Made by a program: the position numbers and the translations under genes. Shown one piece after another: positions 33,382 through 35,185 of a stretch of 64,000 nt of DNA (within the stretch, counting starts at the first letter, position 1; the number at the start of each line of letters is the position of its first letter). The stretch is from an uncultured Clostridia bacterium (lineage in GTDB: Bacteria; Acidobacteriota; Blastocatellia; HR10): positions 642-64,641 of the forward strand of contig CAZTMT010000001.1 of assembly GCA_964615335.1 (NCBI GenBank). Direction: 5' to 3'. The notes beneath the pieces are model-generated. The model had not been told where the DNA came from. It did not search any database and saw only the letters and a program-made list of their open reading frames with translations.

Positions 33382-34824
33382 ATGGCTTTGAGGAACAGAA
33401 TGAGGACGACAAAGGTTCGAGACGTCGCGCTGCTGGAACAGGCCATCCTTTCGGGGCAGTTCCGAGAGGCCGAGCGGATCGCTCGGGAACTGCCGGTGAC
33501 CGATGCGCGGTCGGCGGCCTTGAAGGCTCAAGTGTTGATCTACAAGGGGGAGCTGGAAGAGGCTGGGGAGCTGCTCCAGTCCTTTGAGAAGAAGCTCACC
33601 GAGGCGAGTTTGCGGGAGGCTGCCGAATTCAGCCTGGCGAAGGCCGAGTGGCATTACTGGCGCAGTGAGTATGAGGAGGCCGAACGACAGGCGCAGGTGG
33701 TCTTTGGGATTTACAGCCTGAATCGAGATGATCTGGGAGTCGCTCGGGCCCTGTACATGCTGGGGCGCGTGCATCGGCGTCAGGGCCGTTACGAACAGGC
33801 TCGACAGGAGATGCTTCAGGCGCTGGCGGAGGCCAAGAAGATCACCGATCAGCCGATGGAGTATCTGGTTGGGCTGATCACCTTCAATCTCGGGGGGATT
33901 CATTACTTCCTGGGGGACTTCGCACGGGCTGAAGAAGAGTTGCTCGCGGCTATTCGAGTCCTGGAGAGGGAGCGCGGGCGATATTACGGTAACGCCCTGA
34001 GTTTTTACGGAACGCTGCTCATTGGGAAGGGACTGTATGAGGAAGCGGCGCGGATCATTCGCGCGGCCTACGATTGCCTCTCCGAGAGTGCCTTCTTCGA
34101 TGATCTCGCTCATGCTGTGAACAATCTCGCCTATGCCTGCATCCGGATGGGACAGTTCGAGCAGGCTTCGGCGCTGCTTCAGGAAGGCCTGGAGCTGCGT
34201 CGCCGATCCAGAGACATCGCGGGGGAGTCGGCGACACTTGAGCTCTTCGGGCGGCTCTACTTCGAGCAGGGGCAGTGGGCGGAAGCCGAACGAGTGCTCC
34301 GGCAGGCGATCGAGCTGGCGGACCTGGGAAAGAATCGGCATGAGAAGGCCGTGGCCCTGATCACCCTGGGACGCGTCTTGCTGGTGCAGGGACGATTCGA
34401 TGAGAGTCAGCATGCTCTGCAAGAGGCTTTGGATTGTGCCATTCAGTTGGAGAACATGTCCCTGCAAGCGGAGAGCCACACGTACCTTGCGGAGTTATGG
34501 GTCCACAAGGACAACGGGATGCAGGCGTTGGAGCATCTCAGGCGGGCGAAGTCTTTGGTCAATGGCCATCGGGATGCGTACCTGTCGTCTCAAATACAGC
34601 GAATTGAGGCCTCGATCCGCGAGCACCGGATCAAGGCCGAGGGAGGGGTCTTCATGATCCGGGGAAACTTCTTGCCGACCTGGCGCGAGGCCCACGAGAT
34701 GCTGGGGAGATTCCTGCTCACGGAAGCGTTGCGGCATGCCGGGGAGAATCAGACCAAAGCCGCTGAACTGCTCGGCGTCACCAAAGCTTATGTGACGATG
34801 TTGCGAAAGAAGTATGGAATTTGA
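33382..34824 (+). CDS. TPR-repeat transcriptional regulator with C-terminal Fis-type helix-turn-helix
   Basis: ~400 aa of TPR-like helical repeats, then a C-terminal ENQTKAAELLGVTKAYVTMLRKKYGI motif (HTH_8/Fis family). No AAA+ or receiver domain. Confidence 0.7.
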   Translation: MALRNRMRTTKVRDVALLEQAILSGQFREAERIARELPVTDARSAALKAQVLIYKGELEEAGELLQSFEKKLTEASLREAAEFSLAKAEWHYWRSEYEEAERQAQVVFGIYSLNRDDLGVARALYMLGRVHRRQGRYEQARQEMLQALAEAKKITDQPMEYLVGLITFNLGGIHYFLGDFARAEEELLAAIRVLERERGRYYGNALSFYGTLLIGKGLYEEAARIIRAAYDCLSESAFFDDLAHAVNNLAYACIRMGQFEQASALLQEGLELRRRSRDIAGESATLELFGRLYFEQGQWAEAERVLRQAIELADLGKNRHEKAVALITLGRVLLVQGRFDESQHALQEALDCAIQLENMSLQAESHTYLAELWVHKDNGMQALEHLRRAKSLVNGHRDAYLSSQIQRIEASIREHRIKAEGGVFMIRGNFLPTWREAHEMLGRFLLTEALRHAGENQTKAAELLGVTKAYVTMLRKKYGI

Positions 34825-34840
34825 CATGAGGAGGTCAGCT

Positions 34841-35185
34841 ATGAAGAGAGTTCTCCCAGTTGCGCTACTTGTATTCGCCCTTAGTTGTCTTTCCCTTCCC
34901 GTGCAAGCGGGCGTCACCATGGGAGGAAAGCCCTACGTCCCGGGCGCAGATCTTCCCGTCGGTGGAGTCACCATGGGAGGTCGGCCGTTTGTCGAGGGCG
35001 GCGCGGTCTTCACGCCGAGAGGCTTCGGTCTGGGGGCTCAATGGTACGACGAAGGTGGGGCTCCGGATCCGTACTCGGGCCTTGGAGTAGAAGAGAGTTT
35101 CGGATGGGTCCCCTCGTGGTCCTGGTTTGGGTGGGACATTGGGGGGATCTTCGAGCTCTTGCTCGGATGGCTCATGTTCTGGTAA
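34841..35185 (+). CDS. Small secreted Gly-rich / Trp-rich protein (114 aa) co-transcribed with the TPR-HTH regulator
   Basis: GGAGG sits 6 nt upstream of ATG 34841, only 16 nt after the regulator stop. Sec signal peptide MKRVLPVALLVFALSCLSLPVQA, an internal GVTMGG(K/R)P(Y/F)V repeat, and a hydrophobic W-rich tail SFGWVPSWSWFGWDIGGIFELLLGWLMFW. Confidence 0.55.
   Translation: MKRVLPVALLVFALSCLSLPVQAGVTMGGKPYVPGADLPVGGVTMGGRPFVEGGAVFTPRGFGLGAQWYDEGGAPDPYSGLGVEESFGWVPSWSWFGWDIGGIFELLLGWLMFW

Follow-up and report, generated by a model that had tools for sequence, protein, structure and literature searches.

The locus described here raises the question of whether a TPR regulator and the small exported protein encoded directly downstream of it act together as receptor and ligand, or are merely neighbours. 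Literature descriptions that we found of a cytoplasmic TPR receptor paired with an exported propeptide are limited to Bacillota and mobile elements, and a full-text search returned no paper on a TPR plus HTH_8 regulator or on peptide/TPR signalling in Acidobacteria. The window (the whole stretch of DNA that was analysed) is 64,000 nt long, and the upstream region and regulator comprise the following features:

33326..33353, + strand: sigma-70-type promoter, TTGACA-16 nt-TATAAT, matching 12 of 12 consensus positions
33354..33399, + strand: 5' leader with GGAGTCAACGATTC and a GAGG Shine-Dalgarno for the 33400 start, from the upstream alignment
33400..34824, + strand: TPR-HTH regulator gene, 474 aa plus stop, from the ORF call
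33460..34629, + strand: TPR superhelix, residues 27-416 (480-aa numbering)
34681..34815, + strand: C-terminal three-helix Fis/NtrC-type HTH, residues 434-478 (480-aa numbering)

An upstream ATG at 33382 offers an alternative regulator start, which would give a protein of 480 aa (ORF 33382-34824, + strand). As all of the 19-22 regulator orthologues compared begin at the Met equivalent to 33400, and a stop lies in frame directly 5' of the start in two of them (L001 and L002), the alignment makes 33400 the likelier start. A public protein of 474 aa (P0007) is 100% identical to the regulator.

A preliminary description had read the regulator as a TPR array fused to a C-terminal Fis-type HTH, with neither an AAA+ nor a receiver domain, and Pfam, profile comparison and AF2 modelling all bear this out. 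Pfam matches TPR_12 (1e-30) and TPR_MalT (3.6e-19), and the AF2 model (pLDDT 90.3) is an all-helical TPR superhelix of about 10 helix pairs with a period of about 40 residues, to which a capping helix is added. Pfam identified no AAA+ or receiver domain, and Sigma54_activat, the central AAA+ sigma-54 interaction domain, was absent by both Pfam and NCBIfam. An NB-ARC/STAND NTPase is likewise absent, the N-terminal 416 residues being all TPR helices (Pfam, AF2). Conservation in the orthologue alignment is highest at the HTH end, which follows an invariant linker (F.I...F.P.WREAH). The HTH_8 match of the regulator itself (19.1 bits, E 0.0011) falls under the gathering cut-off of 22; we accept the HTH despite this because HTH_8 is matched in 17 of 23 members (best 2.9e-6) of the wider TPR-HTH_8 family of about 38 clusters, because the last 85 aa, searched as a profile, match both 1ntc, the DNA-binding domain of NtrC (E 0.005), and the XRE-type HTH 2a6c (E 0.003), and because AF2 places three helices at the C-terminus (434-478). 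The regulator is a putative cytoplasmic DNA-binding protein whose TPR sensor resembles those of Gram-positive peptide-pheromone receptors. TPR superhelices of this size are alike in general, however, and LGN, APC and APPBP2 also score highly.

The C-terminal three-helix HTH is a likeness to the NtrC-family bEBPs, from which the regulator differs in lacking the AAA+ sigma-54 interaction and receiver domains and in having a promoter of sigma-70 type. Compared with MalT, a STAND activator whose domain III is a SUPR/TPR-like sensor, it has no NB-ARC/STAND ATPase, carries a Fis-type rather than a LuxR-type HTH, is half the size and has a conserved partner gene for an exported peptide. Proteins with TPRs, a sigma54-AAA+ domain and HTH_8 (P0035 and P0039) are weak relatives of the regulator and few in number. 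We also considered a RiPP reading, prompted by the best NCBIfam match, the HaaT TPR protein, which reaches only 72 bits where 1125 are required, and rejected it because this match is a generic TPR one and modifying enzymes are absent nearby.

The near-consensus promoter claimed at 33326, which lies 5' of both genes, proved to be a strong one that matches the consensus at every position, where 0.3 such sites would be expected in shuffled sequence, and its hexamers and spacing are kept upstream of nearly all orthologous loci, distant ones included. Alignment of nine upstream regions from the close clade identified a conserved leader element, GGTCAA[AG][AG]AT[CT][GA]TGAACGA, of which GGAGTCAACGATTC in the window is a partial form; it may be an operator or an RNA element. 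No Rfam family was matched at E <= 1 in 33000-35500, the leader element included.

Downstream of the regulator lie the features of the small exported protein:

34829..34834, + strand: Shine-Dalgarno AGGAGG, 6 nt ahead of the small ORF's ATG
34841..35185, + strand: small exported-protein gene, 114 aa plus stop, from the ORF call
34841..34909, + strand: predicted Sec signal peptide MKRVLPVALLVFALSCLSLPVQA, cleavage expected after V-Q-A
34910..34933, + strand: motif copy 1, GVTMGGKP, aa 24-31, the N-terminus of the predicted mature protein
34964..34987, + strand: motif copy 2, GVTMGGRP, aa 42-49, 18 residues past copy 1
35102..35182, + strand: aromatic hydrophobic C-terminal tail FGWVPSWSWFGWDIGGIFELLLGWLMFW, from hydropathy, composition and the AF2 helix at residues 100-113

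Each element that the preliminary description had listed here, namely a 114-aa ORF 16 nt past the regulator stop, its strong RBS, signal peptide, GVTMGG(K/R)P repeat and aromatic tail, was recovered at its coordinates, the signal peptide by rule. The 16-nt gap that follows the regulator TGA contains the RBS and no terminator-like site, an arrangement compatible with co-transcription; in orthologues the gap ranges from 15 to 181 nt and GGAGG occupies the equivalent position before the small ORF.

Among the orthologous loci with enough downstream DNA to be counted (n=21), a small ORF with a signal peptide adjoins the 3' side of the regulator in all 21, with regulator identities of 44-81%, and the small gene has a dN/dS of 0.10-0.23 (dS saturated), which indicates a real gene under purifying selection. 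The pair therefore withstood the comparison proposed for its refutation, and because the pair, the motif and the promoter recur across the 21 loci and dN/dS is low, we regard these features as beyond chance. The flanking genes differ from one orthologous locus to another (iol/LacI, pyrC/ECF sigma, RHS, PhoR, NAD kinase, CBS/PFOR); LacI/iol and PhoR/PhoB/PhoU/Pst are among the neighbours, and no third gene is conserved across loci. The hosts are Acidobacteriota MAGs, in which the module is chromosomal, single-copy and syntenic. A mobile-element origin was considered and discarded, with no phage match and, among plasmids, only generic TPR matches at <30% identity.

Searched as a profile against 5.8 billion proteins, the small protein yielded only 13 homologues, all of them on contigs bearing regulator orthologues, and the window's protein has no family in Pfam or NCBIfam. 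Its orthologues are 102-122 aa long. Signal peptides were judged by the -3/-1 rule and by inspection: in the window, MKR is followed by 16 hydrophobic residues and then V-Q-A (the n-, h- and c-regions), and all orthologues have Ala at -1 and A, V or I at -3. The middle of the protein is Gly-rich and disordered, and the AF2 model (pLDDT 52), disordered save for its terminal helices, was for that reason left out of the fold search. The last 25 residues include 8 aromatics in the window and 3-13 in orthologues (3 in L023, at least 5 in the others), with 0-3 acidic and mostly no basic residues and a terminal residue that is aromatic or Leu; from composition and model, the C-terminal helix is likely a membrane anchor. 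Across 14 orthologues, family matches were confined to scattered single sequences, and neither a sorting-signal nor a bacteriocin family was matched; the NCBIfam models of PEP-CTERM, GlyGly-CTERM and LPXTG-like sorting signals gave no consistent match (one sequence only, at E 0.08-0.09), and the tails have no basic end. In the close clade, the protein is conserved over its full mature length, with 27 invariant columns including a central GGVFTP.GFGLGAQ.YDE. Between clades the middle is not conserved, and only the motif and the tail architecture are kept.

In the DNA of the window, the duplicated motif appears as a direct repeat of 37 nt at 76% identity and a spacing of 54 nt. In every orthologue, the first motif residue is residue 23-24, exactly at the predicted signal-peptidase site. 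Five variants occur (GVTMGG, GVTAGG, GVTNGG, GQSQGG and RE/DSHAG, the last as RESHAG or RDTHAG), and the fourth residue co-varies between the two copies across orthologues (M/M, A/A, N/N, Q/Q, H/H). Gene conversion is out as the cause of this identity, because nearly all orthologues show synonymous third-position differences between the codons of the two copies. M and A types alternate across the regulator tree, with the M-type window as outgroup, which implies that both copies have switched together at least twice; L017/18 (M motif) are 91% identical to L015 (A motif). Three regulator columns (G172, A389 and R413, 480-aa numbering) are common to the M-motif loci (the window and L017/18) and found in no A-motif locus, roughly as many as 62 x 24 lineage-specific columns would share by chance. 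The preliminary description had singled out the C-terminus of the peptide as the element to follow; it is instead the N-terminal motif that behaves like a ligand.

Motifs of the same kind occur in small ORFs adjacent to TPR-HTH_8 paralogues at 34-37% identity, where the ORFs are 30, 59 and 68 aa long. At one paralogue locus (L032), two signal-peptide ORFs lie in tandem, each with the sequence ...AKA|DEQH[GT]G... and a hydrophobic tail; at two others (L029/L030), a hydrophobic ORF of 30 aa, served by a promoter and RBS of its own, ends in ...NGVSAGG.

Taken together, strict linkage, purifying selection, a motif at the cleavage site, co-variation of its copies, motif-bearing ORFs at paralogues and a conserved promoter lead us to favour, tentatively and at somewhat less than an even chance, the reading that the two genes are a cognate one-component receptor/exported-ligand module, analogous to the RRNPP(A) cassettes of Bacillota but differently built. 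The regulator would be a cytoplasmic transcription factor, probably binding DNA as a dimer, in which the superhelix of about ten repeats senses and the C-terminal Fis/NtrC-type HTH contacts DNA. The small protein would be exported by Sec, and cleavage by signal peptidase I would create a new N-terminus, the octapeptide [GR]-x-[TS]-x-[GA]-G-[KR]-P, with the second, identical copy 18 residues further on. The Gly-rich middle could then serve as a flexible tether, while the aromatic C-terminal helix may anchor the small protein in the membrane, from which proteolysis would later free it. A motif-bearing fragment, mono- or bivalent, would be the ligand of the TPR groove; candidate peptides for the TPR domain are GVTMGGKPYVPG, GVTMGGRPFVEG and the 18-mer, with GVTMGGKPYVPGADLPVG as the candidate for the regulator complex. 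If the fourth residue (M/A/N/Q/H) sets specificity, RESHAGRP and GQSQGGRP would be non-cognate forms for the window's regulator. Bound ligand may alter DNA binding at the module's own promoter/leader and at other targets, with autoinduction or envelope-to-cytoplasm feedback as the outcome, and the sequence is compatible both with a between-cell signal (quorum sensing) and with a report on the cell's own export or processing state. To reach the TPR domain, the motif would have to be exported, cut, released and then taken back up through two membranes, each of these a predicted step. Against this reading, the hydrophobic tail would hold the small protein in the membrane, no oligopeptide importer was identified, and two paralogues (P0064 and P0067) have no small ORF adjacent to the regulator. 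The mature protein of about 90 aa is also conserved full-length in the close clade, unlike typical propeptides, and this suggests that it has a function of its own, beyond that of a simple propeptide.

How closely the module resembles known systems can be judged against the RRNPP(A) group (Rap-Phr, NprR-NprX, PlcR-PapR, PrgX, Rgg-SHP and AimR-AimP, from Bacillota, plasmids and phages). RRNPP receptors are recognised as proteins of 250-500 aa with TPRs whose genes directly neighbour those of their propeptides, at a validated intergenic distance of -50 to 191 bp; validated propeptides have 21-50 aa (detector range 10-100 aa), and intragenic duplications are common in their genes (PMC10075063). 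Of the five signature features in that paper, up to four are seen in the module, the signal peptide among them as a prediction, and the limit set by the fifth, a propeptide of <=100 aa, is narrowly exceeded. The regulator, at 474 (or 480) aa, has a TPR superhelix, its gene is a direct neighbour of the small gene, and the orthologues all have a predicted n/h/c signal peptide with A at -1 (by inspection). The RRNPPA core, known from Bacillota and mobile elements, consists of five TPRs with an optional N-terminal HTH and four more C-terminal TPRs (PMC12700828), whereas the module's regulator has about ten 40-residue repeats, its HTH is C-terminal and of Fis/NtrC type rather than N-terminal and of XRE type, and its sequence identity to RRNPP(A) receptors is 9-16%. 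The small protein, at 102-122 aa, is larger than validated propeptides and has a conserved membrane-anchor-like tail, and its candidate ligand lies at the mature N-terminus rather than the C-terminus; moreover, the module resides on chromosomes of diderm Acidobacteriota without phage or plasmid relatives. Thus, of the RNPP-like pair originally proposed, the receptor/ligand logic gains from copy co-variation and the motif ORFs of paralogues, while membership of the RNPP family itself does not hold given the type and position of the HTH, the size of the peptide and the low identity.

A diderm precedent for the general logic comes from heterocystous cyanobacteria, in which the small proteins PatS, HetN and PatX share an RGSGR motif that is the ligand of the cytoplasmic DNA-binding regulator HetR. 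HetR is not a TPR protein and RGSGR is unrelated to the module's motif, so the likeness would be one of analogy only.

A rival reading gives the small protein an envelope or membrane function of its own, as a tail-anchored, Gly-rich and disordered periplasmic protein that would simply share a transcript with the regulator or be under its control. Its duplicated motif would then bind a periplasmic or outer-membrane partner, and the TPR domain, like MalT DIII, would sense something else, either a small molecule or a different protein. We consider this rather unlikely, as it fails to account for a narrow small-protein family found only beside the regulator family, or for unrelated-looking ORFs with the same N- or C-terminal motif beside paralogues; nor does it sit well with a middle that varies between clades while motif and tail architecture are kept. 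Re-import would be unneeded if the cytoplasmic TPR domain instead bound the unexported precursor through its signal peptide, motif or tail, since both partners would share one compartment; export would then free or occupy the regulator and tie transcription to Sec/envelope status. The model for such a chaperone-regulator comes from type III secretion, whose class II TPR chaperones bind hydrophobic translocators and then co-activate transcription. An aromatic hydrophobic tail and a signal peptide are typical chaperone clients, the TPRs weakly match HrpB1/HrpK and the SctY chaperone, and an ECF (envelope-stress type) sigma gene adjoins the module in four loci (L007-L010). The chaperone matches, however, are sub-threshold and generic to TPRs, Sec substrates normally leave too fast for the role of a cytoplasmic ligand, and the exact position of the motif at the cleavage site and its co-varying duplication are left unexplained. 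A secretion sensor of this kind is accordingly improbable in our assessment.

The suggestion of a Sec-dependent bacteriocin or membrane-active toxin under the control of the TPR regulator draws on a protein that is small, exported and Gly/Trp-rich with an amphipathic or hydrophobic tail. It found no further footing: an immunity gene, dedicated transporter or peptidase is neither adjacent in the window nor conserved at orthologous loci, bacteriocin families of Pfam and NCBIfam are unmatched, and the genes are single-copy, chromosomal and syntenic, with phage or plasmid relatives limited to generic TPR matches and a low dN/dS that is not diversifying. We regard a toxin as very improbable.

The receptor/ligand reading makes the module an uncharacterised candidate peptide receptor-ligand pair in an outer-membrane phylum, the Acidobacteria. 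If a conserved, differently wired version of this kind holds in thermophilic Acidobacteriota, the signalling logic would extend to outer-membrane bacteria, and the module would be a possible outgroup for the RRNPPA family, whose root is unresolved. It would also be a compact cassette in which a single promoter and regulator are joined by a defined candidate ligand of 8 residues, whose specificity variants (M/A/N/Q/H) occur naturally. A bolder version, which we think doubtful, is that these are the first RRNPP-like cytoplasmic peptide receptors outside Gram-positives, in which a motif peptide from the Sec-exported neighbour switches a TPR-(C-terminal Fis-HTH) factor, a bivalent ligand may bridge the receptor dimer, and an ECF sigma factor, together with tiny, divergent ORFs resembling signal peptides, belonged to an extended ancestral module. 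Neither an ECF sigma gene nor such tiny ORFs, of the type MxxQxGQxD...SC-P-I-P-G, were found in the window by tblastn and six-frame regex. Were this version true, a diderm phylum would owe its cassettes for peptide pheromones or self-signalling to an independent origin or to a very ancient divergence. Even without signalling, the locus strictly couples a rare regulator architecture to an unusual exported protein whose duplicated motif is kept identical by selection.

The gap between the two genes takes a distinct form in the RESHAG clade. A read-through product or a tiny ORF was considered for the spacer there and rejected, as the frame relative to the regulator stop varies among loci; the spacer, of about 100 nt, holds a conserved element.

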